From: Azolla caroliniana
Taxonomy: Eukaryota > Plantae > Polypodiophyta
Reading direction: 5' to 3'
NCBI GenBank assembly: GCA_043228905.1
Contig: JBHGNT010000010.1
Location: 9,796,001 to 9,860,000, forward strand
Length of the DNA: 64,000 bases
Part shown: positions 3 to 34,800 of the stretch, in pieces
Numbering within the stretch: the stretch's first letter is position 1
How the letters are laid out: each line of letters begins with the position of its first letter
Made by a program: the position numbers and the translations under genes
The notes under the pieces: generated by a model
Seen by the model: the letters and a program-made list of their open reading frames with translations, nothing else
Database searches by the model: none
What the model was told of the DNA's origin: nothing

Positions 3-1454
3 CGATACACGAAGAGGGGGCAATGGCTTGCCGACGAGGAAAAGAGGGTTTCGGAACCGATTCCGAAACCGAGAACCGGATTGGAAGACCATCAACTGAG
101 GGCTCGAGAGACTACAACCGAGAAGGCGATTGATGCATCTACGGTGGAGCAACTATTGAAGGAGATGGAGAATCTGAAGATCGCGATGGTGAAGAAGTCG
201 GATGACCGCCCCACAAGCTCCAAGTATACGGACCGACGGTGCATATGGTGCGATAGCGCCGAACACGATCGGAGGGATTGCGACGAGCATAAGGAGGCGC
301 TACGGCGGGATCTCATCTACTACGAGGGAAACCGGATTCATTCGATGGACTCTCGGAAGCCACTCCGACCGAACTTCCGTAAAGGCGGCATGAAGAAGGT
401 GCTCGAGGAGGAATTGGCGGCAAGAAGCAACTATGCGACAACCGCGGGAATATGTGTCGGGGAGTCATCGAGAGCAAAGACGTCTTTTTGGCCGGAAGTT
501 CTAGAAAACACTGAGAAAACCGACTCTAACGAGATCCGAAGCACCGCGGAAGGCGTCCGGGAAGCTACGGGATGGGAGTGCCCTGTCGACAAGAATAGCA
601 TATACGCCCTGTGTCAATTGCATAAGGTGTATGTGGACGAGAAACGACGACGCACGGAGGATGCGGCCGGGCCATCGAAGATACCGGAAAGCTGGAACTC
701 CGGAGGTAAGGGAAAAGAAAAGGCGACTCCGGCATTCAAGCTCGCCTCGGACATAGAACAACAAACCGACTTGAAAAGAGTGTTCGAGGAAAGAATCTTG
801 GATAGTCGGGTAGATTTCTCCCTTCGGGAGCTACTCGGAATAGCAAAGAAGGAGTTCCACGATCTTCTCGTGGATCTCGTGAAGCGAAAAAGACAAAGTA
901 CGGAGGAAAATGCTCCAAGGGTGAATGTGAACACCGTTTTAATGAACGACACCGAAGTGGAGGACGAAATTCCAAACTCCCACTATACAAGGCCACATTG
1001 GGCACGCGCGACTACGGAGACTCCGGTCCGAATCGGCAACATCAAAGAACCCGTGCTAGCATTGATTGATCACGGATCGGAGATCAACTTGATGTCCAAG
1101 GAGTTCTACCGGAAGGGGAAGTGGCCTATTAACACAAACCATGGATGGAAGATTCGGGCGGCCACCAAAGCAACGGAAGATCTATTTGCGGCTTGTCCGG
1201 ATGTGACGGTGAAGATCGGGGATGTCGAGATCGACCAAAATTTCTTCGTGCAAGATGAGGTTTCACATTCCGTCATCCTCGGCCAACCCTTTATCACGGC
1301 ATCACGGATGGAGACGAAGGTGCTCGATAGCGGTGCGGCTTTTGCGCGAATTCAGAGCCAAAACGGTGGGAAATCCGTCCAATTCCTAACGGTGCCGGCA
1401 AATCACGAAAGGAACAAGAGGGAACTCTTGTCCCAAGTGAGAATGGATTTTTAA
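3..1454 (+). CDS. gag: Gag-protease polyprotein, 5' partial (frame open from the window edge)
   Basis: Zinc knuckle CIWCDSAEHDRRDC; aspartic protease motif ALIDHGSEINLM and VILGQPF; stop TAA 1452-1454. Confidence 0.9.
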   Translation, partial: RYTKRGQWLADEEKRVSEPIPKPRTGLEDHQLRARETTTEKAIDASTVEQLLKEMENLKIAMVKKSDDRPTSSKYTDRRCIWCDSAEHDRRDCDEHKEALRRDLIYYEGNRIHSMDSRKPLRPNFRKGGMKKVLEEELAARSNYATTAGICVGESSRAKTSFWPEVLENTEKTDSNEIRSTAEGVREATGWECPVDKNSIYALCQLHKVYVDEKRRRTEDAAGPSKIPESWNSGGKGKEKATPAFKLASDIEQQTDLKRVFEERILDSRVDFSLRELLGIAKKEFHDLLVDLVKRKRQSTEENAPRVNVNTVLMNDTEVEDEIPNSHYTRPHWARATTETPVRIGNIKEPVLALIDHGSEINLMSKEFYRKGKWPINTNHGWKIRAATKATEDLFAACPDVTVKIGDVEIDQNFFVQDEVSHSVILGQPFITASRMETKVLDSGAAFARIQSQNGGKSVQFLTVPANHERNKRELLSQVRMDF

Positions 1455-1508
1455 AGCGGACTGTTGTGGAGTGGGGAAGTGATAGTCCGAGAAGCCCTGA
1501 TACCCCAC
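1445..1508 (+). promoter_or_regulatory. Predicted -1 ribosomal frameshift signal: GGATTTT plus H-type pseudoknot
   Basis: Heptamer 1445-1451 directly before the gag-pro stop; stem1 1457-1466/1480-1489; stem2 1471-1476/1503-1508; conserved in two other copies. Confidence 0.8.
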
Positions 1509-4500
1509 ACAGGAAGAAAACTCTCGGAGCAAAACATGTACGAATTGGTCCGGATGGGGCATCTACGTACACGACCATAACCGGAGGATTGAAGAAAGGA
1601 TACCGACAAGTGGAGGATAAGTTGCGGTCGGCATCAATAATAAAAGAAGATGAAGAAATCGTGGGGATAGTCGAAGAAGTGTTCTATGGGAGCACACTAC
1701 AACGACTTGAAGAACTTGCGGAAGATAAAAGCCAAGGGAACCGGGTAGTCCCGGTGGAATCGGTCGAGATGTACGAGATCATTGCGAAAATGGAGCCGGA
1801 TACGCTCCGCAAAGAAGAAGCAATGGTAAGTACGAAATACAAGACCGTGGAGAAGAAGGTAAAACCGGCCGCGGGACCACTACCCGCCGATAGCGAACAA
1901 AAGAGGAAAGAAGTCTCGGGAGATCCGACACTTCGGAAGACCGTGGATATCGGACATGCCTTCACGGATGAGACCCGGAAGAAACTTCGGATCGGTGGAG
2001 GTGGGTTCCTATTACAAAAAGAAGAAGAACGGTTTCGCGAGATGTTGGAGCAATACGGCAAAGCATTTGCATTTACATCAAGGGAGATAGGGTGCGTCGA
2101 TCCGAGAATAGTGGAGCCGATGGTGATCTTCACGATTGACCATGTACCGTGGAACCTGAAGCCGATTCCGGTGCCACGAGCGCATATTCCGAAAGTCATT
2201 GACTTGCTCAAGGAGAAGGTGGCGATGGGGATTCTAGAGCCATCAACTGCTCCGTACTCAAATCGATGGTTTACGGTTCCGAAGAAGAATGGGTCACTCC
2301 GATTTATCCAAGACTTGCAACCGGTGAATAAGGTCACGATCCGGAACTCGGGAGTCGGTCCGATAGTGGACGAATTTGCGGAAGCTTTTGCCGGTCGTGC
2401 GATATACTCCATCGGAGACCTATACTCGGGGTATGACCAATTCCAACTAGCCGTGGAGAGCCGAGACATCACAACCATGCGAACACCGATAGGATTAGTC
2501 CGAATGTGCACACTACCACAAGGGGCGACAAACTCGGTTGCTCATATGATGAACGCGATGAACAAGGTGCTTCGAGACTGCATTCCGGAGATAACGATGC
2601 CGTTCCTCGATGACATTCCGATGAAAGGATGCGCGGTAGAAGAAAAAGATGAGACTATGGATGATCGGGGATGCCGAAAGTTCGTGGTCGACCATATTCA
2701 TGATTGCGAGAAAGTGTTGCGAAAGCTAGAAGATGTGCACCTAACACTTTCCGGGGAGAAATCGGCATTCGGGCAAGAAGAAATATTAGTGGTCGGACAT
2801 CTATGTGGGCCCTACGGCCGAAGACCGTCACCAACAAAGATCGATGCGATTCAAGCTATGGAGGAAGTATGCGAGTCAACATCCGAAGTCCGAAGGTTTC
2901 TCGGTGCATGTGCATTCTATCACATATGGATTCCGCACTATGCACATATAGCGGACCCGCTCTACCACTTGTTGCGGAAAGGTAAGAAATTCAAATGGAA
3001 ACCGGAACACACCAAAGCCATGAAGAAATTGAAGAAGACACTTCAGAGGGCGGAAGCACTTAAGAAGCCGAGCTATGACCGACCGATCATAGTAACGGTT
3101 GATACAAGTCCAACCGGTATCGGGTGGGTCATCAATCAAGCCGACTCGGATGGTTCGCGGTATCCGATCCGATTCGGAGGAAAGGTTCTCAACGAAAGGC
3201 AACGTGGATATGCGCAAGTCAAAAGAGAACTGTGGGGAGTCGTGTCGGCGATAAAATTAGATCGGGATTATTTGATCGGAGCCGAAGTGGTGATCGAGAC
3301 GGATTGTCTTCCGATACTCGGGATGATGCGGTGTTGTACGATACCGGATGTAGCTATGCTAAGGTGGGTTGCATATGTCAAGTCGCTTAATCCGGAGGTT
3401 CGACACATCTCGGGGAAGGACAACGCGGTAGCGGATATGTTATCAAGGGCTCGGTTCGGAGACGACATAACCGAATCGGATAATGAAGAAGTTTCCGAAG
3501 ACTACTTCGCGTCGGAGCACATATGCCGAGTAAACGTAATCCGGGAATTCCAGGAAGAAGAATACGAGGGAGAAAGCTTGATGATCGGGAAGATGTTACA
3601 AGAGGCTGAGGATTCAACAAACGATAAAGGAAGAAGAGCCGAGATCCGAAGAAAGAAGAGACAAGTCCAAAAGTTCTTCTTGGAAAACGGATTAATATGG
3701 AGGGCGCCGAAAAGACCGGATGGTATACCACTTCGAGTAGTCGGGACAAAAGAGCAACGAAACCGGATAATGTCCGAGTTTCACGAATCCGATTGGGCTG
3801 GACACCGAGGAACATGGGCAACATTTGTGAAGATCAAGCAAAAATATTGGTGGAAGAAAATGTACAAAGATGTCGCGGAGTTCACGGAAAGCTGCGAGAA
3901 ATGTCAAGTCTACTCCGGGGTTCGACATCGAGATGAGTTACATCTGACATTCTCACCGACAATCAACTTCAAGTGGATGGTTGCCATAGTGGCCATGCCG
4001 ACCGGGATCGGACAAAAGAAATACTTGGTATTAGCTCGGGAAGATCTCACGAATCAAGTAGAAGGTCGAGCGCTTCAGAGGAAAACGTGTTCCGCGGTAT
4101 GCCAATTTCTTTTAGAGGAAGTATTTTGTAGGTATGGGTGCGTAGGACAAGTGATTGCGGACCGGGGAGAACTCGACTCGGACAAAGCTAGGGGATTCTT
4201 CGCCAAACACGGAGTTCGGTTATCGCTGACAACGGCATACAATCCGGAGGCCAACGGGAAAATCGAACGAGGACATAGTCCGATCGTGAAAGCACTTGCA
4301 AAGGCATGCGATGGAAAGGTGAAGGACTGGCCGCAGATGCTTCCGTATGCACTATGGGCGGATCGGACGACGCATAGCTCCATAACCGGTTACATGCCGG
4401 CAGAACTCATGACCGGACAAGCACCGGTAATGCCGACGGAAACCGCGATCGCAACATGGAGAGTGCTACCGTGGAAGGAAGAGATGAGCCGGGAAGAACT

Positions 4501-5080
4501 ACTAGCGGTCCGGATACGACAACTAGAGGGAAGACCGGCAGACATAGCGGAAGCAATACGCCGACAACAAGAAGCACGATTAAAGAACAAAAGTCAGTTC
4601 GACACAAAGCACCGACTACGACCGAGGAGGATTGAAGAAGGAGATTGGGTGATCGTCTATAACAGTAGTTTGGACCATCAACATACAACGATGCGGAAAT
4701 TCGCGAAAAGGTGGTTCGGGCCATACGAGGTTCGGAAAGTCTTCGACAACGGAACGTACCGACTGTCCGAGTTGGATGGAACAATACTACGAGTGCCTAT
4801 AGCCGGGAAGCGGGTGAAGATTTTCAAGAAGCGGACCGACGACAAACCCTATGTGATCCAAGCCAAGGCCGACTACGAGGAGCAATCAGACGAAGACCAC
4901 GGGGATGCGGGAAGCGAAGAACGTGAATTACAACTCATAGTCGACATAAGGGGAGAATCGGAGGAAACTTTGGGTGAAGACGGATATGGGGAATCGAGAA
5001 CTTTGGCATATACCGGAGAATGTGCGGGTTCGGAGGGGGCGAGTGTCGTAGTGTATTCCACACACTACGTGAAAAAGTAA
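1451..5080 (+). CDS. pol: Pol (RT-RNase H-integrase) in the -1 frame relative to gag-pro
   Basis: RT motifs LPQGATNS and FLDD; RH VDTSPTGIG...NAVADMLSR; IN HH-CC, ADRGE, IERGH and WFGPY; uninterrupted ORF whose stop lies inside the 3' LTR. Confidence 0.92.
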   Translation, partial: LKRTVVEWGSDSPRSPDTPHRKKTLGAKHVRIGPDGASTYTTITGGLKKGYRQVEDKLRSASIIKEDEEIVGIVEEVFYGSTLQRLEELAEDKSQGNRVVPVESVEMYEIIAKMEPDTLRKEEAMVSTKYKTVEKKVKPAAGPLPADSEQKRKEVSGDPTLRKTVDIGHAFTDETRKKLRIGGGGFLLQKEEERFREMLEQYGKAFAFTSREIGCVDPRIVEPMVIFTIDHVPWNLKPIPVPRAHIPKVIDLLKEKVAMGILEPSTAPYSNRWFTVPKKNGSLRFIQDLQPVNKVTIRNSGVGPIVDEFAEAFAGRAIYSIGDLYSGYDQFQLAVESRDITTMRTPIGLVRMCTLPQGATNSVAHMMNAMNKVLRDCIPEITMPFLDDIPMKGCAVEEKDETMDDRGCRKFVVDHIHDCEKVLRKLEDVHLTLSGEKSAFGQEEILVVGHLCGPYGRRPSPTKIDAIQAMEEVCESTSEVRRFLGACAFYHIWIPHYAHIADPLYHLLRKGKKFKWKPEHTKAMKKLKKTLQRAEALKKPSYDRPIIVTVDTSPTGIGWVINQADSDGSRYPIRFGGKVLNERQRGYAQVKRELWGVVSAIKLDRDYLIGAEVVIETDCLPILGMMRCCTIPDVAMLRWVAYVKSLNPEVRHISGKDNAVADMLSRARFGDDITESDNEEVSEDYFASEHICRVNVIREFQEEEYEGESLMIGKMLQEAEDSTNDKGRRAEIRRKKRQVQKFFLENGLIWRAPKRPDGIPLRVVGTKEQRNRIMSEFHESDWAGHRGTWATFVKIKQKYWWKKMYKDVAEFTESCEKCQVYSGVRHRDELHLTFSPTINFKWMVAIVAMPTGIGQKKYLVLAREDLTNQVEGRALQRKTCSAVCQFLLEEVFCRYGCVGQVIADRGELDSDKARGFFAKHGVRLSLTTAYNPEANGKIERGHSPIVKALAKACDGKVKDWPQMLPYALWADRTTHSSITGYMPAELMTGQAPVMPTETAIATWRVLPWKEEMSREELLAVRIRQLEGRPADIAEAIRRQQEARLKNKSQFDTKHRLRPRRIEEGDWVIVYNSSLDHQHTTMRKFAKRWFGPYEVRKVFDNGTYRLSELDGTILRVPIAGKRVKIFKKRTDDKPYVIQAKADYEEQSDEDHGDAGSEERELQLIVDIRGESEETLGEDGYGESRTLAYTGECAGSEGASVVVYSTHYVKK

Positions 5081-5802
5081 AAATAATATAACCGATTTAA
5101 TTACATATAAATAAATAAAATAAGAATATCAAGATATTTATCACCAATCAATAAAATAAGAATATCAAGATATTTATCACGTGCATAGGGCAAGATTTGA
5201 ACCTTATACCTCCACATAGCCAAATCTTAACTTTACCATTATGCTACCTTATCTTTAGTGTTCTACAAATAGATTTAATAACTATAAGTCCTTTATTTGC
5301 GCCTATCTTTATTAAAAGGTAAATCATGCATTTTTAGAGTGCGTGAATATTTTATAGAAAAACGCAAGCAACTAAAAAGTGACTCATGCACATCTAGCGT
5401 GCATGAGCACTATATTTAACAAATAAAAGCAAGGATTAGAAAAGCATCACATGCACATTTAGTGTGCATGAACATATTAGAAAAAAGCATGTAGCTATGC
5501 TTAGTCTCTCCCATCACTATATAAGGATGGGGAGCACATTGTAGTTTTTATTGATTATTTTTCTATAATGATCAATCAATCTAAAATATTCGTGGGATTC
5601 ACGAATTTGCTAAAATAATTCTCTCTTACTACCTAAATATTGACTAAATATACTAAACTCGTGGGATTCACGAGATTCTTATCTTATAACTCTTTATACC
5701 TATTCTTTACTAGCCTTATTTGTATTTTTCTTTCCTCCTAGTCCAAAACCTCGGCGGTTCCCACCCGACTCACGCAACGATCCAGAGCCGAAAGGCACGA
5801 CA
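5044..5802 (+). repeat. 3' LTR of gypsy A
   Basis: TGTCGT...ACGACA termini, upstream PPT, TATATAAG at 5518; homologous to 58554-59319. Confidence 0.9.
5181..5248 (-). ncRNA. tRNA-like Pol III promoter module inside the gypsy A LTR (not a functional tRNA gene)
   Basis: Minus strand: A-box TAGCATAATGG (5246-5236), B-box GGTTCAAATCT (5203-5193), tRNA-like 43-nt spacing, TTTT downstream. Confidence 0.6.
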
Positions 5803-5829
5803 CCGGTATGGGAACAGGCGGAAAGCAGG

Positions 5830-8800
5830 GTGATGTACTGCTTCGCATCTAGTGTTGGCGATCAGCTGCTCAGCCACATCCGTGACGCCAAGACACCGAA
5901 GGATGCTTGGGGGAACCTGAAAAAGGTTTTCGCCGCAAGCACCGCTGCCCGGAAGCTGCAACTCAGACAGGAGTTGAGCAATGTTCGACAGAAGAACATG
6001 TCCGTGGCAGACTACACGGGCCGGATAAAGGAGATTTGCGACTCACTCGCCTCTATCAATGTTACCGGAGAGGAAGACGAGATGGTGCAGGTATGTCTCG
6101 GAGGCCTGGCGTCCAAGTTCGGAGCGTTCCGGACTGCGGTGTGTACAAGGGAGAATACCCCCTCATTCTTCGACTTACAGTCGATGCTCCTTGTAGAGGA
6201 GAACCACGCCGGTACATCTACCAGTGCATCCCCGGACAGCCGGATGTTGTACACGGGAACAGATCGGCACTGTGGGCATGGTGGAAGAGGTGGGTCGGCA
6301 CGCAATGGAGGTGGCCAGCAAGAGCAGGAACGGAGGCACTATGAGTGTGCCGACAGCAGTTCCGGGACTTCCACAAGCAGGGGGAGTCAAGGCGGTGCCG
6401 GAGGCCGGCAAGACAAATCCGCTACGGAATGCTGGTACTGTGGCAAAAAAGGCCACAGGGAAAGCGAGTGCTGGAGAAAGCGTGCCGATTCGGACAAATC
6501 CGGATCCGGCAAGACCGGTAAGGATGGCCGGCAAAACTCGCACTACGCAAACGGATCAGGAGGATCCGGAACCGGAAACATCGGTAAGGGGTCAGCCTTG
6601 GTGATGAATCACAAGGCAAACTCAATGAAGAAGACCACTTCCAAAACGGAGGAAGTGTGGTATGTTGATTCCGGCGCGTCGAACCACATGACGAGCCACA
6701 AAGAGTGGTTCTCCTTTCTGGAGAAACCGGATCAACCAAGAGTAGTTGAAACCGGAGATGATACTCCACACCCAATCGTGCACGTCGGAGAAGTGCCTCT
6801 AAGCCACGTCGGACAGAAAGGGAAGCTGATGAACGTATTACATGTTCCGACGATCACGAAGAACCTGGTGTCCGTCGGTCAGATTGTCGACCAAGGGATG
6901 CAGGTGCGGTTTACGCACCTCGGGTGCTTCATTGAAGATGAGGGCGAAGTCATTGCGCAAGGGCGCAAAGACAAGAGGATGTTTATCCTCAACACCAATG
7001 ACATTGGCACCGCTCTGTTCGCGAAACGACAGAAGGTCGAGTCGGACATCGACCTATGGCACAAGTGGATAGGCCACGTCAACTACCGGAGGCTTCAAGA
7101 CCTGCAAACGAAACAAGTCGTTTTCGGTTTGCCAAAGTTCAACGGCCGGAGAGCCGAAATTTGTGAAGCCTGCCAACTTGGGAAGCAACACCGGCTTCCA
7201 TTCCCCACCGAACGGAACCGGAGCCGTAACAAGCTCGATCTCATCCATTCGGATGTGTGGGGACCGACACAAAGTGTAAGCCTTGGCGGGAGCCGGTACT
7301 TCGTCTCCTTCATCGACGACTATACTCGACATACTTGGATCTACCTCATTGAGCGGAAGAGCGAAGTCTTCGACTATTTCCGGAGCCTCCAGAAGATGGT
7401 GGAACGGGAATTGGAGAGGAAGATCAAATGCCTTCGGTCGGATGGCGGAAAGGAATATTTTTCCGGCCAATTCACTAGTTATCTGCAGCAGAAGGGAATT
7501 CGGCGAGAGTTCAGCTGCAGATACACACCGGAGCAAAACGGTGTGGCCGAAAGGAAGAACCGGACACTCGTCGAAGCGGCAAGGACAATGCTGGAGGAGA
7601 AGAGCATGCCCCGGTTCTACTGGGCGGAGGCGGTCTAGACGGTCGTCTACATACAAAACCGAATTGGTGACAAGGTGTTAGCTCATGAGCTGTATTTCGG
7701 GCACAAGCCGAGCTTAAGACACCTTCGGATATTCGGCAGCCTAGCGTATGTGCATGTGCCGGATCAGAAGCGGAGGAAGCTGGATGCAAAATCGGAAAAA
7801 TGCATCCTAGTCGGTTATGCTCAAGAGCAAAAGGGGTATAAGTGCTATAACCCCCGGACGAAGGAAGTCCGAGTTAGCCGGGATGTCGAGTTCGATGAAT
7901 CGGCATCCTGGTACTCCGTACCGACTCTGACTTCCGATCCCGACCGAATGCCGGAAGATCAGGCCAGTGAGCCTGCATCAGCCTTGGAAGAGGATGATGA
8001 AGCCGGGACTCAAGATGAGAGTCCGGAATCGTTGCGGTTGAGTGGACCAAACGAGCCACTGAGTCGGTTGGACCAGTCAGATGAAGAGACGGCAAGTGGT
8101 GGAGACTCTGTCGTGCTCTCCCCGCGCAAGGAACCAAGGAAACGGTTCACGCGCAAAGAGAAGGGGAAGAGGAAGATGCCGGAATTCGAAACCGGCAATG
8201 ATGAGTCGGATCGGTGCATATCCGACTACCGAAAGGAGAAAGGCAGATCTTCGGCAACGAAGACCGAACTGGCCAAGAAGGGCCTCAAATCAGGTGACGG
8301 TGCGTTGCGCCGATCAACCCGTCAGAAGGATCCCGTCATGCGGTACGGGTACAATGAATACATGGCGCATCATTATGCGTACATGACTAAGGTGACAGAA
8401 GTGCGCGAGCCGGAGAGCTACGCAGAAGTAGCAAAGGACGCAAATTGGCGTGCCACTATGGACGAAGAAATGCGGGCACTCGATGCCAACGAAAGTTGGG
8501 ACCTAGTTGATCCTCCGCGTCACTGTAAACCGATCGGATGCAAGTGGGTGTACAAGGTCAAGTACAACGCCGACGGTTATGTTAACCAGTACAAAGCCCG
8601 ATTAGTGGCAAAGGGATATGCGCAGACCCACGGAATCGACTACGACGAGACCTTCGCTCCTGTGGCGAAGATGACGACGGTTCGTGTGGTACTAGCGGTT
8701 GTTGCGGCAAGGGGGTGGCATCTTCACCAGATGGATGTGAAGAACGCCTTCCTTCAAGGAGAGCTTGAAGAAGAAGTCTTTATGACTCAGCCCCCCGGAT

Positions 8801-10530
8801 TTCAATCGGAGATGAACGAGTCGGCGGTATGCCGACTGAAGAAGTCGCTTTACGGCTTGAAGCAAGCCCCCCGAGCTTGGAACGCGAAGATCACGCACCG
8901 GTTGCGTAAGCTGGGGTTTGTTGTCTCTAAGTCGGACTCTTCGTTGTTCATCCGGCAAAGCTCTGACAGTCCGGTATGTATACTCTTGTATGTGGATGAT
9001 TTAGTCATCACCGAGCCGGGTCTTCCAGAAATCAACCGCGTCAAGTCCCAGTTATCGAACGTATTCGAAATGAAGGACCTGGGGGACCTCCATTATTTTC
9101 TTGGGATCGAAGTGATCCGGACCCCCGATGTCATATTGCTCTCACAACAACATTACGTGTTGAATATGCTGTATAAGTTCGGCATGTCGGATTGCCGACC
9201 TGTCTCCACACCCCTGGATCGGAACTAGAAGCTCCGTCCCAACTCCGGTCCGGCCTGCAATGAGAAACGGTTCCGACAGGTTGTCGGAAGCCTGATCTAC
9301 TTCACCATCACCCGACCCGACATCAGCTATCCGGTCAGCATGGTAAGTCAGTTCATGCAGAAGCCGACCGTGGAGCACCTTCAGTGCGCGCAAAGAATAT
9401 TACAGTATGTCAGCGGCACTAAGGACCGGGGACTGCTATACCGGCGAGGTATACGAAGAGCTTGTCGGTTACACAGATGCTGATTGGGCCAGCGATGCGT
9501 CAGATCGCCGCTCCATTCCGGATACATGTTCTCCATAGGTAGCGCGGCCGTTGCGTGGAGCAGCAAGAAGCAGCCCACAGTGGCTTTGTCAAGCACTGAG
9601 GCTAAGTACCGGGCCGCTACCGTTGCCACTTGTGAAGCCATCTAGCTTCGGCGACTGCTGCGAGACTTGCGGATCGAGGTACCGACCCCGATCCCCATTT
9701 ACTACGATAATATGAGCAGCCTGCAGCTCGCCAGGAACCCCGTGTTCCATGCTCGCACAAAGCACATCGAGGTGCACTACCACTTCGTGCGTGAGCGGGT
9801 CCTGAGCGGTGAAGTTGACCTACGGTATGTTCATACGGATCGGCAAGTTGCCGACATCTTCACCAAGCTGCTCGGATCGGACAAGTTGCAGCACTTTACC
9901 GACATGCTTGGTGTTCAGCATCTCAACGTGCCGCACTTGAGGGGGAGAAGCAAGGACAAAGTCTCTACCGAAATGGGCAAAGGCCAACAAACTGTTGAAC
10001 CCGTCGGTAAGAGGAGAGCCAGAAGAAGAGGAGACAAGAAAATGAAGGAAGCCGAGTCGACGAAAGAAGTCGACACATCCGAACAGGTCAGAGTAAGCGG
10101 CTGTGAAGAAGAGTTGTGCACTCAGGAAGAGAAGTGCATGCTGTGCGGAGGTCATCACGACGGTACTGACCATGATGCGGAGTCGAATGAAGAATTCGAT
10201 TTCGGTTCACTGGCTGAAGAAGCCGAGGGAAGCATGGAGAAGGCCAAGACTCGGAAGTGGTCCGATGTGGTGAGAGGCCTGAAGCCGAAAGTCGAATCGG
10301 AGTGTACCGATTCAGACAAGAGCTGGAACGAGTCGGAGACAGCTGACTCGGATCAACAGATGGATCCGGATGAGTCGGATCGACTGAAGACCAAGAGGAC
10401 ACGGACACAGCGGAAGTCGATGCCATCGTGGGAGAACCGACGGATCGGCAAGCGCCGGAATCACAACAACGTGAGTGCTGAGATGGGCCTATTGAGCAGA
10501 CATTCCGACCGAGAGGGTCGAGGCGCGTAG
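5830..10530 (+). pseudogene. Copia B gag-pol, split into ORFs 5830-7638, 7675-9228 and 9667-10530
   Basis: Collinear copia domains broken by nonsense codons and small frameshifts. Confidence 0.9.
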
Positions 10531-15294: not shown

Positions 15295-15897
15295 GAGGAG
15301 TGAGTGACCATGAGTAGTCCTCACCAGAAATAGGAGCACGGGTGAACGTGAGCGACCATGTATGGTCCTCACCAGAGACTGGAACACCAAGGGGGTGAGC
15401 GACCATGTACAGTTCTCACAGGATACAAGAACACCAACATGAGCTTGAGCAACCACGTTGGTCCTCACCAGAGACTGGAACACCAACGTGAGTGTGAGCG
15501 ACCATGTGCAGTCCTCACCGGAGACTGGAACACCAACGTGAGTGTGAGCGACCATGTGCAGTCCTCACCGGAGACTGGAACACCAATGGACATGAGCGAC
15601 CATGTGCAGTCCTCACCGGGAACTGGAACACCAACGGGCGTGAGGACCATGTATGGTCCTCATCGGAGACACGAACACCAACGGGTGTGAGAGACCCTGT
15701 ATGGTCCTCACCGAAGACACGAACACCAACGGAAATGAGCGACCATGTGTGGTCCTTGCCAGGAACTGGAACACCAACGAGCATGAGTGGCCATGTGCGG
15801 TCCTCACCGAAGACACGAACACCAACAAACGTGAGCGACCATATGTCGTCTCACCAGGAACGCGAACACCAACGGGCGTGAGAGACCATGTACGGTC
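15295..15897. repeat. Tandem array of ~47-50-bp units next to the PPT of element F (continues at 23283-23390)
   Basis: About 12 diverged copies of GAGCGACCATGTGCAGTCCTCACCGGAGACTGGAACACCAAC. Confidence 0.92.
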
Positions 15898-19829: not shown

Positions 19830-22800
19830 CACCGGAATTGTCTTGAGATTCCACGGCACATGCGGTCCCGTGAAGATCACCATTGGTTCCACGATCGTCG
19901 GGACCACGCACCCGATCTCCCCCGGCGTGCACGAGAAGGCCTTCCCGTGCCTTCCGAGCATTCCCCGAAACCTCTCCTCCGCCGGCACTAGGAAGCCACC
20001 CCCACTTACCTTGAGCGCCCGTAGCATTATGTCGATGAACCGGTGTCCTATGCCCGCCGGATTCCGCAAACTTGGGTCCCACGTGACCCCTTTCATCCGT
20101 TCCTCGCTGCCCTCCGACAAGGGTGCCACGACTGGCCTCACCTTCCGGTCCATAGTCTTGTACCTTGTATCCACGCAGGCCATCCGATCTGACCTGACCC
20201 TTTCCCCGAAGTCGGCAACGACTTCGTACATTCCCACCGAGTTAATTGGAATCATCCGGTCTTCATCGATGCCTTCTTCGATCACCTTCCCGATTTCCCC
20301 GAGGGTGTCGTCGAAAGAGACTGCCTCCACGGCGCCACTAACTTCCTCACCGGGGTTGAGGACTCCGCATGTCCTAAGTCGGTCCTCTACCCGCTTCTTC
20401 TCCCGGACAATGATGTCGGCTATCATACAACCTCCACTATCAAAGAACCAAAACTTCCTACATGTGGTACAGGTGTGGGGATCCTCCGGGGCGTCCGAAC
20501 TATCATGGCTCCACACCTTGATAGCCCTCTCTAAAAATCCCTTCGTTCGCCGTTGTCGAGGGTTTCGCGGTTTCTCTCATGGTTTGGTCGTACGGTTAGG
20601 AATTGGACGGACTGCCGTCCATCTTGGCTCTTCACGCGCACATATGTCGAATCGTTATCCAGCACCCTTGTCTCCATACGCGCCTCCGTAATGTATGGCT
20701 CGCTGAGTATTACCGGGTGAGAGGACGTCTCCTGCACGAAAAAGTGTTGATCGATCTCGATGTCGCCAATCTTGACACGTACATTCGGGCACGCCCCGTG
20801 CAACTCCTCCGTAACGCAGGTCATCATGCGTATTTTCCAACCGTGCTTGGTGTTGATCGGCCACTTCCCCTTCTTGTAGAAGTCCATGGACATCAGGTTG
20901 ATCTCCGAGCTGTGGTCTATCAGTGCAACCACCGGCTCCTACACGTCCCCGATCCGAACAGGGGTCTTCGTAGTGGCCCTGGCCCAGTGCGACCTCGAAT
21001 AGTGGCTTTCTGCCAACTTGTCTACCATGGCCATGTCTTCCAGGTGCATGGTTCGCACCTCCACCAACTTCTCTGGTTCCGGCTCCGTTGAGAGCCGTTT
21101 CTACTTCACCAAGTCCACGATGGAATCATGGAACTCCTTCTTGGCGATCCCGAGAACCTCCCTCAGCGACAGCTCCACCTTGCTGTCGAGGATCCGTTCT
21201 TCGAGGACCTTCCGTAGGTCCGTTGACCTTTCAATCTCCGTGGTCAGCCGGTACCCGGCCCGCTTCGTTTTGTCCGGTGCGCCCGAGCCGGGTCTCGTAC
21301 TGCTGTGAGGGCCCAGCGCCTCCGGCCTTTCCCGCGCGCTTGTCTTCTACCAGAACTTCATAGTTCTGGCATGCGGCTTCCACGAGACCGGTCTCAACCG
21401 AGTCGTCCCATCTAGTGACCTCCCGGACCCGCTACTCTGCACAACTCGCTTCTTCCTTCTTCAGTCATGCACCGGGGAGGCCTTCTAGCACCAAGGGCCA
21501 GAAACCAGAGTCCTTTGTTTTCCAGTCTTCGTCACCTCCCACCTGGATCCCGGCCGACGTTGAATAATGGACGGCCTCCACATAGCGTGCCTCCGCTTCT
21601 TCAATTAGCCACTTCATCCCCCCACGCTCGAAATTCGTCTCCACCTCTCTCCGGGTATCACCAGTGTGCACCCGTCTGTTCCACAGGTACACCACATTAC
21701 CCCTAAGGGCCTCGGCAAACTCCACACAGTCTCGCCGGTTGTGTCTGACTACGTCGCACCACATACACCGTTGTCCAGCGGGTGACCTTCAGTCGCGTGG
21801 CTGCCCTCCACCGTCTCTCCGGGCCTGCGCGATCTGCAGGTCACGCACCATTTGTGTCAGCTCCTCAAGAGTCGCTCCCCCGGATGGACCCTTGACCACT
21901 CCGGTCAACGCTAGACCAATTTCAACCCAACCTCAGGTTTCCTCCTTTCGTGCCGGCGGAGGCTCGTCGAACTTCCTTGCCGGGGTGGGTCTCGTCACCA
22001 ACGACTTCTCATCGCCCCACTCTCGTCGTTTGTCGAAGCGGCTGCAAACCCCCTTGACCATGGCCCAGTCGGTCGTCAGCCCATTATCTGTCTCCAGCAA
22101 GAGACCCACCTGGTCCCTATCCCACGCGTCCACCGATTTGACGAATAACAGGACACGGCTCGTGTCCAGCACGGTCCTGTCCAGCATTGAGAGCCACGGG
22201 AAGCGTTCCTCGAACTCCCGGAGGAGCGCCAACGCATTCCTCCCCTTCACAGGGGTTTCCACCCACTCCATGAAGTCCCATTTCGATAGCCGAAGCGCGT
22301 CATCAAGCCCATACCTTTCGAGGAGCCGTGCTTCGAATTCTCCCTAGGTCCGGCATCCCGCCTGTACCTCGAGCACCTCTGCGTGGATGCCCGGTGTTGC
22401 CACCCGAGGGAACCCGGCCAGACGCCTATCCTTTGGGATGTCTCTCATCACCATCTCGGCTCGGTAGGCCACCAAATAGCTCGTGGCATCCTTCCCACCG
22501 AATCGGCCTATCGTGCCGACAATTGCTTCAATGGCCCTGTCGAGGGTGCCCGTGCCCTTAGGAGCATTTACTATTCGATTGATCGCTGCCGCCATGGCTT
22601 CGGCGAGCTCCGATCCCCTCATCTTCATTCCTCTGCAACCTTATTTCACGTCAAGTTCACCAAATATATCGGGTTGTTATGCTTTCACGTGTGGAATAAA
22701 GCGAGACGACGGGAGCCCTGAACCGAGGAGCAAGAGAGACAAGAGAGAGCGAGAAGCACGCAAGTGTATGGCCTACTAGACCTGTCAGCAGCCGGCAACA

Positions 22801-23282: not shown

Positions 23283-23749
23283 ACGCGAACACCAAAGAGT
23301 GTGAGCAACCATGTGCGGTCCTCACCGGAGACACAAACACCAATGGATGTGAGCGACCCTGCACGGTCCTCACCGGGAACTAGAACACTTGAAGACTATG
23401 ACGGCTAGGCAAAGTAGTCTTGATGACGACAACAAGAGTGTTGAAGATGATGATTTCGAAGACGAAGCAATGAAGGCAATGATGTTGACGAAGTGACTTT
23501 GGACGCAATGACTTTGACTATGGAAATGATGGACGCAGAGAAAGAGATGAAGACGATAAGAAACATAGAGATCGAGGTGTTGAGGTTCTGAAGAAACACA
23601 GAGACACATATACAAAGAATGATAGAAAACACAAAGATAGGGATGAAGGTGATAGGAAACGCAGAGAAAGTGACGAAGATAATAAGAAACACATAGATAG
23701 AGATGAAAACGGTAGGAAACACAAGGAGAAGGATGACAATGACAAAAAA

Positions 23750-24480
23750 CGCAAAGATAGGGATGTGGAAGATGATAAGAAGTGCAGAGATAGAGATGAT
23801 GATGAGAAGAAACTAGGAGATAGGGATGTGGAAGATGATAAGAAGTGCAGAGATAGAGATGATGATGAGAAGAAACTAGGAGATAGAGATATGAAGGATG
23901 AGAAAAAACGCAAAGATAGGGATGTGGAAGATGATAAGAAGTGCAGAGATAGAGATGATGATGAGAAGAAACTAGGAGATAGAGATATGAAGGATGAGAA
24001 AAAACTAGGAGATAGGGATGTGGAAGATGATAAGAAGTGCAGAGATAGAGATGATGATGAGAAGAAACTAGGAGATAGAGATATGAAGGATGAGAAAAAA
24101 CGCAAAGATAGGGATGTGGAAGATGATAAGAAGTGCAGAGATAGAGATGATGATGAGAAGAAACTAGGAGATAGAGATATGAAGGATGAGAAAAAACTAG
24201 GAGATAGGGATGTGGAAGATGATAAGAAGTGCAGAGATAGAGATGATGATGAGAAGAAACTAGGAGATAGAGATATGAAGGATGAGAAAAAACGCAAAGA
24301 TAGGGATGTGGAAGATGATAAGAAGTGCAGAGATAGAGATGATGATGAGAAGAAACTAGGAGATAGAGATATGAAGGATGAGAAAAAACTAGGAGATAGG
24401 GATGTGGAAGATGATAAGAAGTGCAGAGATAGAGATGTGATGATGAGAAGAAACTAGGAGATAGATATGATAAGAAACTA
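23750..24480. repeat. Purine-rich minisatellite with higher-order structure (30+33+33 = 96-bp unit; 192-bp dimer)
   Basis: The ATGAAGGATGAGAAAAAACGCAAAG variant recurs at 23891, 24083 and 24275. Confidence 0.93.
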
Positions 24481-25554
24481 GGAGAGGAAAGACAAAGACG
24501 ATGATAAAAAGAAACTAAGAGATAGAGATGGCGAAACGAGAATACTATATTGATGTGTCAATGACTGATGTTGAGTCCCTTGAAAGGGACCAAGGAGCTT
24601 ACAAGTATTTATATTGTGAGTCGAAGTACATGCATTAGAATATTCGAGAGAATATTCTAGAACTTTCTAAAAACTCCTAGAACTTGAAATACATAATCTG
24701 CGAAGATATACATAACATGACCATATATTTGGACGTGTTGGTTAGAACATAACAATTGACTATATATAAAAGGTCAAGAGTTTAAATCTTGACATGATTG
24801 TTGTCATGTTTGTGACAGTCGGGCATGATTTTCTTCCAATATCCAGTGATATGGACTGAAGGTCGAAAAATGAGGGAGGATCCTCCCTTGCAAGAATGGC
24901 CGATCTGATCGTACCAAATCGCGATGTTAAGCCGTCGAGGCATATTTGCACCATTTCATCATCGTTGATGACGACGTTGATCGATCCAAGGGCATCTTGA
25001 TCGACATGTCCCTCTGTTGCATATTGTTTAACTCCTATCAGAGTTGGCGCTTACATGCAGTCATGTTGGCTGCGAAAATCTTCTTGAGATTGCCCCAAGC
25101 TTCTTTCAGCATTTTCGACTCTCGAATATAACCGAGCATCTGATCATGAACGCATGATGCAAGGCAATACAACACACGGATTGCAGCCTACTCCCATGCT
25201 AGGTAGTCGGTGTGTGTTGGGTTGGGTTGCGTTTCATGAATTCCTTTGATATAGCTCCAATAACCTTGTCCGACAAGGTATTGATGCATCTTGTATTCCC
25301 AAGATGCGAAGTTTGTCCTGTCGAGCTTCTTTGTAGGAAGAGCACTTCCCATCTAAGTGTTCATGATGTCGATTTCTTCTCTGTTGCTTGAACCGGTTTT
25401 GTTGATCGTCGGTGTGTAGCACAACACAGTTGAATAATCTTGATCAGACAACCACATGCTCCGGTACCATGTAAAGAGTGAGAGACGTAGATGGTATTGT
25501 GCAACGAAAGTGAGCTTTTTTTTTTTGTGTGTGTGTGTGTGTGTTCACGTAAGG

Positions 25555-28075: not shown

Positions 28076-28800
28076 CTACACATGTGGACTGTGGTTCTGA
28101 AAAATCTGAATTAATCCTCCCAAGCTTGCAGTGACAATGACAAGCCCATGTGCTGCTGATACAACCGTTATCTTTTTTTCATCAATATTATCAACAGCAG
28201 CAGAGTGGAGCTTAGGTGAGCTCGTGACTTCTTGAAGGCTCTCTTCAGGCCATGTTGCTGACCCACTTCCGGTGGAAAAGAACCCACTCTGATTGTTTGA
28301 CAGACCCTGTGATAGCGCAGAACAATCTTCCAAATACCGATCCATGATTGAAGATGCATGGCTTACTGAAGCTGAGCTTCTGTCTGAATAGTCTACATCT
28401 CGATGAAACTCTGGACTACTTGACACAACTCTTTCATGCACTGAATTTGAATCTACACATAGAGATCCCAAATCGAACTTATTTACTAGTAAACCAGAAG
28501 GATTGCTGTTAAAATTTATCTCTGAATTGCTCCCATTTCTTTTGAGGATTGAAGAATCACCGTCATCCTTTCTTCCAGCTGGAATGGAAGATTTTTGAGG
28601 CCATGGTATTGCTACTGAAACATCTCGAACTGAGAAATGTTCATAGGCTCCTGGTACGGTATTTTTTTGTGGACTTTGTTGCTCAAGGTTTGTATCAGGA
28701 TATCTCCATATGCAAACACGTGAATCTTCACTTGCAGAGATTATATATGTTCCATCTGAGGTTAAAGATGCAGAAATTTGGCTCTTTGTGTTCCGTAAAC
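28076..28800 (-). CDS. WDR44-like exon 7 (terminal)
   Basis: CAG|..[11 protein letters not shown]...[12 protein letters not shown]; in frame with ORF 28076-28471 ending [15 protein letters not shown]. Confidence 0.88.
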
Positions 28801-31800
28801 CTGTAGAAAAATTTGGCTCTCTCTCTCTCTCTCATGGGCCAATTTTGGCCTTTGAAGACGTTAATATTTCTTTCTTTCTTTCTTTCTTTCTCTCTCCACC
28901 CACATACATGTGCTAAATTTTGGGGAAATCTGAAGGGGATGGCTCTCTCTCTCTCTCTCATGGGCCAATTTTGGCCTTTGAAGACGTTAATATATCTTTC
29001 TTTCTTTCTTTCTTTCTCTCTCCACCCACATACATGTGCTAAATTTTGGGGAAATCTGAAGGGGAAATTTGTTAAGAGTTATGGTGACTTAACTTTTGTG
29101 GACTTGGCTATGCATTGTAAGAATTTATATGAGCTACTAATTGTCAGAAAGATGATGTGGCTCTCTTTCACATATGCCTCCCTTCTTTATGCTTGAAAAT
29201 ATATGCATAGGCCTTAAGATATTGGCATCTTGAAAGACAAGTAATCTTAAATGTATAAAGGTTGAAATGTCGGCCAAAGGCAATCGATCTTCAATGTATG
29301 AAGGACGAAATACTCCAATGGCCGAGAAAGGAAACACACGCATGGATAAGTGATATGTTTAATCAGGCATTGCAACATAACATGCCCTACAATTGGACTA
29401 CGAATTAGATTTAACCTTTACACAAAGGTGGAGATGTAAATAATGTTAACAAATATCGAACCATCACGATTGGTTCACTAATGCCAAAACTATTTTGATG
29501 TATAATGGAATCAAAGGCAAGTGCAAGGGCTGAAAAAAATTATCAGAGGAGTTATGATCAAGGTGGCTCTCGAAAACATCATAGCACCATCAATCACCTT
29601 GTCACCCCTTGAAGTATTAATGGAAAAAATTTGCTTGAGAGGAATATGTTGCTTCATAGACTTCAAGAAAGCTTTTATTCGCTTGGCACCTTGAGTTCTT
29701 CAATGCACCTCCAGAGATGCTCACGCGGTACCATATCAAAAGCTTGCAGTTGCCCGAATCTAGGAATTGGCAACAGTTTGGTTTCAGCTTAACCTGTTTG
29801 GCCTAGTCCAAACCAAACTAGCTAAGCCTTAACCTGTTTGAGAGTTTTCAAACTTGCACCAAACTGGTTTAGTAGCCAGTTTAGCCAAACCGTTTAAGCC
29901 TCAACCGGTTTGTTCCTAAATGGTTCGGTTTAGGCTTGAGCCAAGCCAATGCCGACTCCTACCCAAATCCATGAGAAGGTTATATGTTGTGTGCGTATGG
30001 GCAATGAAATTTGAGATTTTTTCCAATAGCATTATTGGTGTTAAGTAAGGATGCCCACCCTCACCAACTATATTTGGTCTATGCATTGATAAATTAGAAC
30101 AAATGATTGTCAAGTTTATAAAGGAAGAAGGTATTGAAGAAGTTGTCATGGGGAATGTTATCATCATGCTTTTGTTGTATTCAAATGATGTGATACTTTT
30201 TGCAAATACCTTAGGAGATGCACAAAAGCTTATGAGGGCATTAAAAGAGTTTTGCATGCAGATGAAGTTGAGTGTCAATAACTCTAAAGCAAAGATTATG
30301 CTTGTGAAGAGCCAAAATAAGGACAAACCGTGCATTATCTGCAATTATAAGCTACTTGAAACTGTGGAAAGTTTTAAATACCTTGGCCTTAAAGTTCCTT
30401 CAAAATCATAGCTGGAAGTAGCAATCAGCAACAGTTCAGTTTGAACCGCAAAACTATGGCTTAAAGGCTTAAACGATTTGGTTCAAGCCTTTATCGGTTT
30501 AACGATTTTCGGTTTAAACGGTTGAAATGTTTTGACAGCTTAGGATTGACACTAGATAATTTTATTAAATATATTTTTTAACATTTTAAGCCTAATTTTG
30601 ATATTTTAAGAAAAAACTTTAAATTTTGAAATATTGAAAATTATAAAAAATTTTAAATTAAAATGTGAAATTTTTAATTTTGACCTTTAACTTGAAAACC
30701 AAAACCGAACCGCAAAACCCTGGTTTTAACGGTTTAAACGTTTAAAGGGTTGAAAGTCTCTAGAACTGTTCGGTTTAAATAGTTTCGATTTAAACGGTTT
30801 CATGGGAAGTTTCAACTTCTTTAACGGTCTGAGTTTGACACTCTTGGACCGAACCAAACTGTTGTCGATTGTTAGATGCAAGGAATGTGGTATCAGCTGC
30901 CTAGAGTGAGGAAAGAGAGCAACTTATGCATTTGAGAGCACATACAATCATGGAGAAACGAAGTGTTCAGTCCTCAAGCAATACCTTTTCGACACTTTGC
31001 AACGCCAATGTATCATGACATAGGAAAAGTGTGGAGACTCACGCTTCACACATTATACTACATATGTTGCACCTAACTACAAAACCATATTCTTTGCTAA
31101 ACAAAGAAAGTGCATATATCAATACGTGTTAGAGCCCATCCTTCTAAACCATTACTTCCATGTGACTTAGCTCACACTCACTACGATATGAGGCGAGGCA
31201 TTAGGGCACAAGTAATGAGAGGAGTCAACTATGTACACTTTGCCCTAAAAAGTCTGGGAATTTGAGTATCACAATTGATATCACGTTTTGCCTTTGATCA
31301 TATTCAATTATGCTTTCCGCACATCTTCAACCAAACATAATCCTTGCACGAATTTCTCTCCAATCACAATGTGCACTCTCGATTGTTACATTCATTAATA
31401 AGTTCTTGAACATCAAGAGTCGCTATTCACTTTCACATGTATTACATGAAAAAGTTATATTTTTGGTCTCATAGGTCGTATTTAATCTCTGAAGACAATA
31501 GTAAAATCTATTTATCTATCTCTTTAGACCCTAAAAAAATGTATCTAACCTCTATCTCCGACATTGTAATGGATACCCATCAAATGTAAGATTTGGCATA
31601 AAGGAGTTGATCAATGAATTGATATCATACTTCTCGTTGACACTCAAAGCATGATATAGATTCAAGGGTTGGGCAAATGCAATGTACTAGGTGAAAAATC
31701 CAAATTTCTAACTTTTATGTCTATCTCAATAGAAATCAACCCTCTGCCAATCTAGAAGATGATATCTTTCTTATTTCAAAGGTCAGGGGAAGTTATTGTC

Positions 31801-34800
31801 TTTGGTGACATGACGCTCGTACAAGAAGTTTACAACTTGATGCACTACAATCATTCATGCCACGTATCTCAATTTGGGAATTTGCAGTTGTACTGAAATG
31901 CTTATTGCAAATGGTGTATCCTTATGGCCCAACACATGGTTTTACATGTAGAAAAAACAATGGAAATAGTGTTATTAACTATGTCCTACTTTCCGAAGGT
32001 ATTTTGGATTGCATACACAAATTCTCACTTTGTGAATAGACATTGATGTCCAATCATAGGACCTTATGCATTGACCTCAAACGTATGAAAAGGTTCTGAC
32101 TGTGAAAAGGTCATTAAAGAAGGAAGAACCCGTATATAGAGAATATATTGTTTCTTTGCTAATTTCCTCGAGGCCTTTGACACTATACCATGTGCACAAT
32201 AAGTAATTGAGGAAATATGCATCATCACTTACACAATATAATCACATAACAAGTTGTCATGTCTTCGAGACATTTAGAGTTGGCCTTTGATGAGGCAACC
32301 TATGCATTACTCATCATTTCTAGCATACCACATCCAATCTACTCAAAACACTTCTCATAGCTATATATGTATGGTTGTCTATTCAAAAACAAGAGTTTCA
32401 ACTCATCAACATAGATACCTTTATGTTTGGAGCTGACTTTAGTACCATCATGTACACGGATTCTTGAATCACTAGATGTGATCAACACTTTATCATTGCT
32501 GCCAGGGATGAACTGTAAAAATAACAAAATATATCAGCCTGTTTATGTTATAAAAAGCTGATCTCATATTTCTAATATCCCTCTAAAAAGAAGAAAATGA
32601 AAACCTGAAGACCAGTTATCTTCTTTCCTTGTGATTGTTTGTATGTTTTCCTTTGTGGTTCATAGAACTTCTCAAATTGCAGTTTGTTATCCACTGCAAG
32701 GATAGATCTTTCCAAAATCAACAGTGCAAAAATGCAGACCAAATTTAGGTTTTCAAAACACTAAATTTCAGAAATCAAATTTGAAGTTAATGTGACTTAG
32801 AAAAAAAAGTTTCCTCCCAAGTATTTCCCAGCTTTCATGAACCTGTTTCAACCCTTTATCTTTCTGTGGCCAGATTATTGCTGTGATATTAGCTCATCTC
32901 ACATATGGTCAAGGGCTCAATTAAGTCTTTTTTTCTATGATTCTAAGTTCCTCCCAATTTAAGCCTCCAACTTTTCAAATTTATCGCCATGAGAAAAAGT
33001 ATTTCCCAGCTTTCATGAACCTGTTTCAACCCTTTATCTTTCTGTGGCCAGATTATAGCTGTGATATTAGCTCATCTCACATATGTTCAAGGGCTCAATT
33101 AAGTCTTCTTTTCTATGATTCTAAGTTCCTCCTAATTTAAGCCTCCACCTTTTCAAATTTATCGCCATGAGAAAAGAAAGATAGTTTTAACATTATTGTC
33201 AAGCAAGTTTTGCACAATTGGCTGCTACTTGGACATGAACTTCCCCCATGAGCAAAGATAGAAAGGTTGAATATTATTTCATTACATTAGGCAGAATTTG
33301 CATTCTTAGATGCTATTTGGATATCAATGGAAATATGTCCCTGGAACAAAAGAAAAACTTCCTGAATCCTCACTTACTGAACTAGCTTTATAAGTACTAA
33401 TAATTAGGCCACATGACAGTTTAACAGATCAAGACTCATTGCTGGAATGACTAAAGAGAAGCAAATGCCAAACAATACCTGACATCTTGAAGAAGCGACA
33501 AATCCCTTTATACGAACCCACAACAGCTCCCTGTAATGGTTACTTCGATATCTCAGAAAATGGAAAAACATTACATTAACAGATTTGAATAATGATCAAC
33601 AAATCAGGAGAAACCTGTCCATCGGGTGTATAGCATGCTGCAGTAACCATCTCATTCAGGTCAAACCAGTCTACAACCTGGCGATTTTTTATGTTCCATA
33701 TTCGCACCGTCCCATCCAATGAACCACTTATGAAGTAACCATCATCCACAGGGTTGAATTGAATGCATGTCACTGCCATTGGCAAAACAAGAAAACGATG
33801 AGATAAGACTGGATTTGATTCAACTTGTGCACTCTATAGCCATTATTATTCCTCCATCGCATTTACAGCGTAGGCAAAGAAGTTCTATAACAGTAAAAGG
33901 GATTAAGTTTCATAGGCATTTACCATAATCAGAATGTGTAAAGATCCTCAAGCATTCTCCCCTCAGAACATTCCATAAGCGCACTGTCTTATCCATAGAC
34001 GACGATAGTAAAACCTAGTACATGTGAAGGAAGCACTATAAGGCATGTGATTATCAAACAAACAATAAAATAATAGAGACTAATATCTATACAATGTGAT
34101 TAATAGGTATCGAAAGAATAAGAAAATATATAAAACTAGAATGCCTTGGTGGGACACGGAAATATCAGTCCAGCATTAAGAGAACATGTAACGCTGCTAA
34201 TGGTGAAAACAAATATTTATCTCCCTCCAGATTTGAGGGAAGTGGAGTACAGATGATGATCATGGAAATGTTTCACATTGCTGGAAGATGTTTCTAAAGA
34301 AGCTTTCTAAATTCATCTTGAGAAAATGGTCTTGTGATCGTAGATGGCCTCCGTAAGACTCCATCTATTGAGGTTTAACAATATACTCGTATCAAGTCAT
34401 GAACAGGACTTAAGAACCAACCATCTTCTAAAACATTATTCTAATCTTGAATGCTATATTTATTTTATTTGATATCAATCCAATGTTGAGTTGTAGGATA
34501 TATTTTGAGATCAAATTGATTAAGAACAAGCAAACTTAATTCCATTTTCATGTACGAAGATGATCTCATTATCTGAAACAAACCCTGACTTTTATCAAAT
34601 TCCAATCTTAGGTTTACATTTACGATGATACATTTTCATGTACAACATACTATATCAAGTTTTTGTAAGTTTTGCATGTCCTACTATGTGTTAAATATAA
34701 GCTCGTGAACTGTTTCATAAAAATTGTGTACAACCTAAGAATGTTCTCCTAACTGTTAACTATAAACTTATGAGTGGTTTCATGAAAATTATGTACCATC

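Follow-up and report, generated by a model that had tools for sequence, protein, structure and literature searches.

A conserved recoding signal, probably for −1 frameshifting, between protease and reverse transcriptase in DUF4100 Ty3/gypsy elements of land plants

Introduction

In Rous sarcoma virus the protease is encoded in gag, upstream of the position where ribosomes change frame. The −1 shift from gag to pol in this virus uses a slippery heptamer followed by a pseudoknot (as described in PMC5009743), a combination that we report here, with a predicted pseudoknot, for plant retrotransposons of the DUF4100 type. Rous sarcoma virus is, however, a vertebrate retrovirus with a different heptamer and a different structure, and the two signals likely arose independently.

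The heptamer of the plant elements, G_GAU_UUU, is also a slippery site of dianthoviruses, and in umbraviruses the stimulator consists of a long stem-loop that interacts with a distant sequence. The preliminary description of this DNA had likewise named G_GAU_UUU as an umbravirus site, in agreement with the section of PMC5009743 on pea enation mosaic virus, where the identical heptamer has a stop codon close behind it and is read by plant ribosomes. In the virus the site serves an RNA-virus replicase, whereas the compact pseudoknot is a feature of the DUF4100 elements.

Where gag and pol of plant elements lie in separate frames, a 2003 survey cited in Atkins et al. (2016, PMC5009743) has only two types, both with +1 shifts. 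Among the lineages tabulated by Neumann et al. (2019, PMC6317226), Ogre and Retand (Tat) have their reading frame interrupted between protease and reverse transcriptase (RT), as do the elements described here, but by an intron in Ogre and by a single in-frame stop in Retand, with overlapping frames in neither. Tcn1 and Selgy of mosses and clubmosses also have two overlapping frames (GAG:o:PROT-RT-RH-INT), but the break lies before the protease, and the table gives neither direction nor signal. No plant lineage in that 2019 table has overlapping frames between protease and RT, so that the earlier remark that such an arrangement is unusual for plant LTR elements holds against it.

Results and discussion

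Three copies of a DUF4100 element

The window, by which we mean the whole stretch of 64,000 nucleotides of Azolla caroliniana DNA analyzed here, contains three copies (A, I and J) of a DUF4100 Ty3/gypsy element whose kin occur in mosses, liverworts and ferns. Decay has affected I and J, and only copy A is intact. Their features are as follows.

3-5802, + strand: copy A, Ty3/gypsy element, part inside the window
3-1454, + strand: copy A gag-protease ORF (DUF4100), 5′ end beyond the window, C-terminus ...MDF-stop
1445-1451, + strand: copy A slippery heptamer G_GAU_UUU, identical in 66 of 76 located loci
1452-1454, + strand: copy A gag-protease stop TAA, abutting the heptamer and within the spacer
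1457-1465, + strand: copy A, 5′ arm of stem 1 of the predicted pseudoknot
1471-1476, + strand: copy A, 5′ arm of stem 2, inside the loop of stem 1
1481-1489, + strand: copy A, 3′ arm of stem 1 of the predicted pseudoknot
1503-1508, + strand: copy A, 3′ arm of stem 2 of the predicted pseudoknot
1448-5080, + strand: copy A pol, −1 frame, without stops from 1331 (a frame of 1249 codons)
5081-5802, + strand: copy A 3′ untranslated region and 3′ LTR, LTR end at 5802
20471-20540, − strand: copy I signal, heptamer 20540-20534, then TAG
20527-20520/20504-20497, − strand: copy I stem 1
20518-20511/20478-20471, − strand: copy I stem 2
22645-22662, − strand: copy I primer-binding-site motif, two changes relative to the family motif
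62775-62837, − strand: copy J signal, heptamer 62837-62831, then TAA
62824-62815/62803-62794, − strand: copy J stem 1
62810-62806/62779-62775, − strand: copy J stem 2

The protease of copy A has an aspartic-protease-like DHG motif at about nt 1068. Its pol, open for 1210 codons counted from the shift site, encodes in this order a linker of ~130 aa, RT (FLDD at nt 2603), RNase H and integrase; a Pfam scan detected RT, one RNase H region and integrase, and neither a chromodomain nor an extra archaeal RNase H in this pol. The 3′ LTR end at 5802 is directly followed by CCGG, which has the NCGN form; the other end of the element lies outside the window. Since a copia ORF has its gag match starting exactly where the LTR of copy A ends, copy A is likely a nested insertion in a copia element. 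This copia element (5803-9228, + strand) has its ORF split by a single stop at 7636-7638.

The protease regions of I and J are 67% and 83% identical to that of A at the DNA level. Copy I has stops in gag and is truncated at its 3′ end, with pol cut off after 244 codons, while pol of copy J stops after 32 codons.

The signal in the three copies

The heptamers, stops and both stems of A, I and J all lie where the preliminary description had placed them, with the qualification that stem 2 of copy I pairs in a shifted register. Its statement that gag-protease ends at the heptamer and that pol lies in the −1 frame is correct for A and I, where the heptamer is in frame, but the heptamer of J is out of frame with the protease upstream because of a 4-nt gap near 62915. 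Pairing is indeed kept despite sequence change, although among the three copies the changes are mostly one-sided (A-U/G-U), true double changes being found mostly in the larger family.

The sequence GGATTTT occurs at eight sites in the window, three of them at the end of a protease region. A pattern built from the three copies has exactly three matches in the window and none in 100 shuffles; because it was derived from the copies themselves this serves as a uniqueness check only. For an alignment-free measure we scored perfect H-type pseudoknots that start 4-9 nt behind the heptamer, limits that were set with copy A in view. The scores were −30.3 (A), −28.7 (I) and −28.4 kcal/mol (J), and were equalled by 0/150, 1/150 and 0/150 dinucleotide shuffles and by 2/200, 2/200 and 0/200 synonymous recodings, respectively. 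Within the same element no other window equalled the score of the signal (0/687 for A, 0/347 for I, 0/681 for J). Nested folding of the 86-nt regions gave no significance (z of +1.62, −0.47 and 0.01) since only one of the two stems fits a nested fold, and Rfam had no match in the window.

Heptamer, stop and pol frame across the family

Protein searches, from which the best 120 of 245 and the best 120 of 178 matches were listed, yielded proteins from metagenomes as well as some assigned to Physcomitrium patens, Riccia sorocarpa and Adiantum nelumboides, the Physcomitrium homologues being up to 62% identical among the matches listed. The family is accordingly one of non-seed plants, likely of mosses and their relatives. 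Of 162 homologous gag-protease ORFs, 131 end at the site or four residues past it, the tail length being variable; their C-termini are DF (89), NF (5), GF (3), [DG]FxxxP[LF] (32) and VF[DY] (2).

A metagenome scan gave 169 loci, of which we kept the best 80; a single assembly series contributed most of these. Clustering yields 38 groups at 90% identity and 26 at 80%, and the median identity is 66%. A slippery heptamer at or just before the end of the gag-protease frame was located in 76 of the 80; L042, L058, L062 and L079 were left out because the site could not be located, and L032 was too short for the structure tests. The heptamer is GGATTTT in 66 loci, GGATTTC in four, GGTTTTT in three, GGGTTTT in two and AGATTTT in one. 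It is followed by TAA (29), TAG (28), TGA (11) or a sense codon (8). With pol in the −1 frame, 30 loci have an open stretch of 1000 codons or more, 19 have one that runs to the contig end, 15 one of 100-999 codons and 10 one of fewer than 100. In two others pol is open over 1000 codons or more at −2, and an in-frame fusion was found in none of the 76. In most loci stem 1 begins 5-6 nt past the heptamer (scorer range 4-9), within the 5-9 nt given for stimulators of −1 programmed frameshifting in PMC5009743.

In five loci (L059, L063, L068, L069 and L070) the gag-protease stop lies four codons past the heptamer, inside the pseudoknot. The corresponding DFxxxPL ending occurs in proteins of Physcomitrium and Adiantum, too. 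The structure is retained in this subgroup even though the pseudoknot now contains the stop, which indicates that the signal is independent of an adjacent stop.

Several of the distant representatives (33 inspected of 99 listed) still end in DF, GF or NF. Very distant gag-protease proteins of the DUF4100 type, namely P0181, P0188, P0214, P0226 and P0245, have the ending DF, NF or GF. Judging from such endings, the signal may be much older than the DUF4100 element family. No relative was found among viral contigs, and two contigs with relatives in GTDB genomes are probably contaminants.

Conservation and covariation of the pseudoknot

A pseudoknot with perfect helices is present in 55 of 61 distinct regions and absent from six, one of which (L060) has a stem with one mismatch. 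Of 38 family representatives, 34 score better than sequences recoded synonymously from their own peptide, and in 33 the signal ranks in the top 1% of windows along the respective element. The rate of synonymous change is lowest at the signal (0.33 compared to 0.575 overall), the minimum of 118 windows along pol.

The MAFFT alignment of the 38 representatives is nearly gap-free. With the full pseudoknot 80% of cells are paired, compared to 39-43% when the partners are slid, and nine of the 11 stem-1 pairs show double changes. None of 500 shuffles reaches any of the measures, in a shuffle that ignores relatedness. RNAalifold, unprompted, predicted stem 1 (columns 14-21 with 37-44), with double changes in six of eight pairs.

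To account for relatedness we used a tree-aware null, in which independent columns were simulated on a tree of 56 rows. Under this null p ≤ 0.001 was obtained for the stem-1 pairs 15-43, 18-40 and 21-37, and p = 0.0003 for the sum over stem 1. Covariation in a larger family alignment had been set as the test of the pairing seen in the three copies, and for stem 1 it is significant here. In an all-against-all ranking 17 of the 20 top column pairs nevertheless lie outside the proposed pairs, so that the tree-aware null is imperfect and shared ancestry not fully removed.

Stem 2 is weak when taken pair by pair (p of 0.04-0.20 under the same null) because its register moves. Since the shift affects its 3′ arm, we used a partner-swap test among 26 families: the loop of a family pairs with its own arm at −13.3 and with swapped arms at −10.9, and none of 20000 permutations was as good. 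Three of four control offsets were null, the one at +150 nt being nominally significant (113/5000). Stem 2 is thus supported as a whole, not by individual pairs. Its sequence varies widely across families, with GUGGGG/CCCCAC, GCGAGA/UCUCGC, UGAGGGU/ACCCUCA, CAAGG/CCUUG and GCAGGGA/UCCUUGC all represented. A locus fetched later from another collection (L081) has 10 of the 11 stem-1 pairs at the same columns with only 14 of 31 bases identical to A, and its pol is open for 908 codons in the −1 frame.

Proposed −1 mechanism and alternatives

We consider it very likely, on the strength of these comparisons, that the signal of the DUF4100 gypsy elements directs programmed −1 ribosomal frameshifting. 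The −1 reading of the preliminary description has gained from the family-wide survey, with the heptamer fixed where gag-protease ends, each of the three stop codons found behind it and pol open in −1. The family has the canonical features of such signals, i.e. a zero-frame heptamer, a spacer, a covarying 3′ structure and a −1 ORF open through the site. Most ribosomes would stop after the heptamer and release Gag-PR. A minority would pause at the pseudoknot, with the P- and A-site tRNAs slipping from GAU/UUU to GGA/UUU; P-site re-pairing on G_GAU_UUU is imperfect, as it is at the umbravirus site. By analogy with established −1 frameshifting, the product of slippage should be Gag-PR-linker-RT-RH-IN. 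Since Gag-PR-Pol would be made in a minority of events, the protease should reach the level of Gag, and rationing would be confined to the replication enzymes.

One alternative is that partial splicing joins pol to gag-protease and that the RNA structure has another role. It has a model in Ogre, whose ORFs are split at the same protease/RT boundary by an intron that is removed (PMC6317226). For the DUF4100 elements we regard it as very improbable because of the stretch between the stop and RT, which is open in the pol frame and conserved as a protein. This linker of ~120-155 residues is free of stops in the pol frame and has a dN/dS of 0.15-0.38 in three of the four pairs computed (the fourth was saturated), a sign of purifying selection. 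The interval is therefore a selected coding linker and not a non-coding intron of the Ogre type. The donor-like motif GGT[AG][AC]G was found in no more than 4 of 20 intact families, at differing positions, and splicing would leave both the fixed heptamer of the X_XXY_YYZ type and the fixed spacer unexplained. Of the polyA reads that map to 600-2600 (two runs, 40 + 30 reads), none spans the junction. The few skips at the junction were seen in single low-depth contigs of probable DNA runs and have no GT-AG ends. The polyA reads of two runs, mostly less than 95% alike, cover part of gag (600-930), which suggests that a related copy is transcribed.

A ~100-aa part of the linker (window 1550-1835, + strand, pol frame) is conserved with the pattern I.G..EE.SF.DT..ELE....I.V.S..MY. 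It has no Pfam match, and a PDB sequence search gave weak matrix-protein matches only (E of 0.046 and 0.56).

Covariation proves a structure, not its function, and the coding regions of LTR elements can contain cis-acting structures. The pseudoknot might accordingly be an element for packaging, dimerization or reverse transcription, with pol expressed by internal initiation or by re-initiation from its own AUG. Such an explanation appears equally improbable, given that heptamer and spacer are conserved along with the structure. Independent initiation is further opposed by the lack of a conserved start codon, the first methionine in the pol frame being found anywhere from residue 5 to 107 across families, and by a pol frame that is open right back through the heptamer.

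Stop-codon readthrough driven by the pseudoknot, with the frame change incidental, would recall the single stop between GAG-PROT and RT in Retand (PMC6317226) and the readthrough that a pseudoknot at 9-nt spacing can cause (PMC3458567), but its chance is negligible as it is largely excluded by the frame, a long zero-frame pol ORF being found in 0/76 loci, and the stop itself varies (TAA, TAG, TGA) and in one subgroup comes four codons later, inside the pseudoknot.

A clade with a candidate −2 signal

The two loci in which pol lies in the −2 frame have the following candidate signals.

L061, 2835-2900: AG_GUU_UUU with a 5-nt spacer, candidate −2 signal
L066, 2497-2560: AG_GUU_UUU with a 5-nt spacer, candidate −2 signal

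In the MAFFT alignment both are placed one base shifted relative to all other rows. Their pseudoknots start 5 nt downstream of the heptamer and score −35.3 and −33.3. The −1 frame closes after one and six codons, respectively, whereas the homologous linker and pol are encoded in the −2 (=+1) frame, which is open for 1153 and 1100 codons. The two loci, which stand for two families, form one clade (100/100) nested among −1 families (midpoint root). Between them pol has a dS of 1.16 and a dN/dS of 0.088, and has thus been under selection after their split. Contigs from two runs, each belonging to a different study, span the L061 junction gap-free, one without any difference and the other with a single one.

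The motif RG_GUU_UUU is the −2 site of arteriviruses (nsp2TF) and permits re-pairing in the A site (PMC5644247). It is matched by AG_GUU_UUU in L061 and L066, where the −1 frame likewise closes at once or soon. The arterivirus site, as described in PMC5644247, is stimulated by a protein complex bound to a C-rich motif 10 nt downstream, RNA structure being dispensable, while the two loci have a pseudoknot 5 nt downstream instead; their slippery sites may act alike, but the two loci do not represent an arterivirus-type system. According to PMC3458567, the best spacer for −2 slippage in vitro is 1-2 nt shorter than that for −1, and this holds with a pseudoknot too; the rule was demonstrated on a U6A heptamer, which is unlike AG_GUU_UUU. 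The spacer of L061 and L066 is one base shorter than in their −1 relatives, in agreement with this rule. Their site looks like that of the family shortened by one base in the heptamer, so that a single event could have yielded both the −2 motif and the shorter spacer.

It thus seems likely, although less firmly so than the −1 signal of the family, that L061 and L066 use −2 frameshifting with re-pairing of UUU in the A site, pol being reached in the −2 (=+1) frame only. We give a smaller but real chance to a +1 shift, or to an inactivating loss of one base in elements mobilized by a helper. Both +1 and −2 lead to the identical frame, the site is apparently one base short relative to the −1 relatives, and the pol side of the −2 claim is visible in two loci only. 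An inactivated element is hard to reconcile with a pol that is intact and has kept a dN/dS this low over such a distance. Furthermore, all seven cluster members that reach the end of gag-protease (19 of 39 members listed) share the VFD or VFY ending. As for a +1 shift, re-pairing on UUU_G would be poor in L061, and stem 1 begins with a base that is also part of the stop, so that the knot could hardly stay folded with the stop in the A site.

Taking both signals together, we lean towards a scenario in which a land-plant lineage rations RT and integrase, not protease, by pseudoknot-dependent −1 frameshifting and in which one branch has switched to pseudoknot-dependent −2 frameshifting via a one-base change.

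Classification

The DUF4100 elements probably belong to the Phygy lineage of non-chromovirus Ty3/gypsy elements, which is characterized by the lack of a chromodomain and of an archaeal RNase H, a tRNA-Trp primer-binding site, a 4-bp NCGN target-site duplication and a length of 7.7-10 kb without extra ORFs. Phygy-like traits of the elements in the window are their moss homologues and the absence of a detected chromodomain; the one flank seen, at the 3′ end of copy A, has the NCGN form that such a duplication would have. A primer-binding motif is conserved in 41 of the 47 loci in which the upstream sequence is long enough or the motif is present, and it may correspond to tRNA-Trp; a search of 31 viral loci found no tRNA for this motif. 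In the table of Neumann et al. (2019, PMC6317226) the ORF organization of Phygy is given as 'ND' and the clade is called species-specific. The elements described here differ from Phygy as surveyed in their defined layout, GAG-PROT followed by RT-RH-INT in −1, and in having protein relatives in Riccia and Adiantum.

We found no description of the signal in the literature searched. In the text portions available, the term 'frameshift' gave no passage in PMC7466625, PMC2864245 and PMC3248453 and irrelevant ones in PMC11963269. Two ORFs may have been mentioned earlier in subscription journals, Repbase or GyDB, especially for fungal relatives.

Implications

The recoding signal is conserved; its parts are canonical and its setting is new. 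The blank left for the ORF layout of Phygy in the standard classification of plant retrotransposons would be filled, and beside the Ogre intron and the Retand stop, plant gypsy elements would have a third means of limiting expression at the protease/RT boundary. For studies of frameshifting on plant ribosomes, the family provides dozens of compact natural pseudoknots that covary. With the −2 clade, the mRNA-tension/spacer model, so far based on engineered constructs, could be tested on natural sister signals. If true, the −2 reading would provide a natural −1/−2 pair on the same stimulator and an essential enzyme that depends on a −2 site, for which we found no report in the literature searched. 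Annotation pipelines probably count such intact elements as broken.

Other features of the window

A second copia element (39371-43512, − strand) has terminal repeats that are 96% identical and a 1031-aa gag-protease-integrase ORF, in which no RT match was found. Pieces of a host WD40-repeat gene lie in an A+T-rich stretch at 28076-36823 (− strand), and self-comparison revealed tandem repeat arrays at 47591-49654, 23533-24530 and 15297-15897. A zf-RVT (LINE-like) fragment is located at 46796-47548 (− strand), and remnants of more distant gypsy RT/RNase H sequences at 56359-57739 (− strand).
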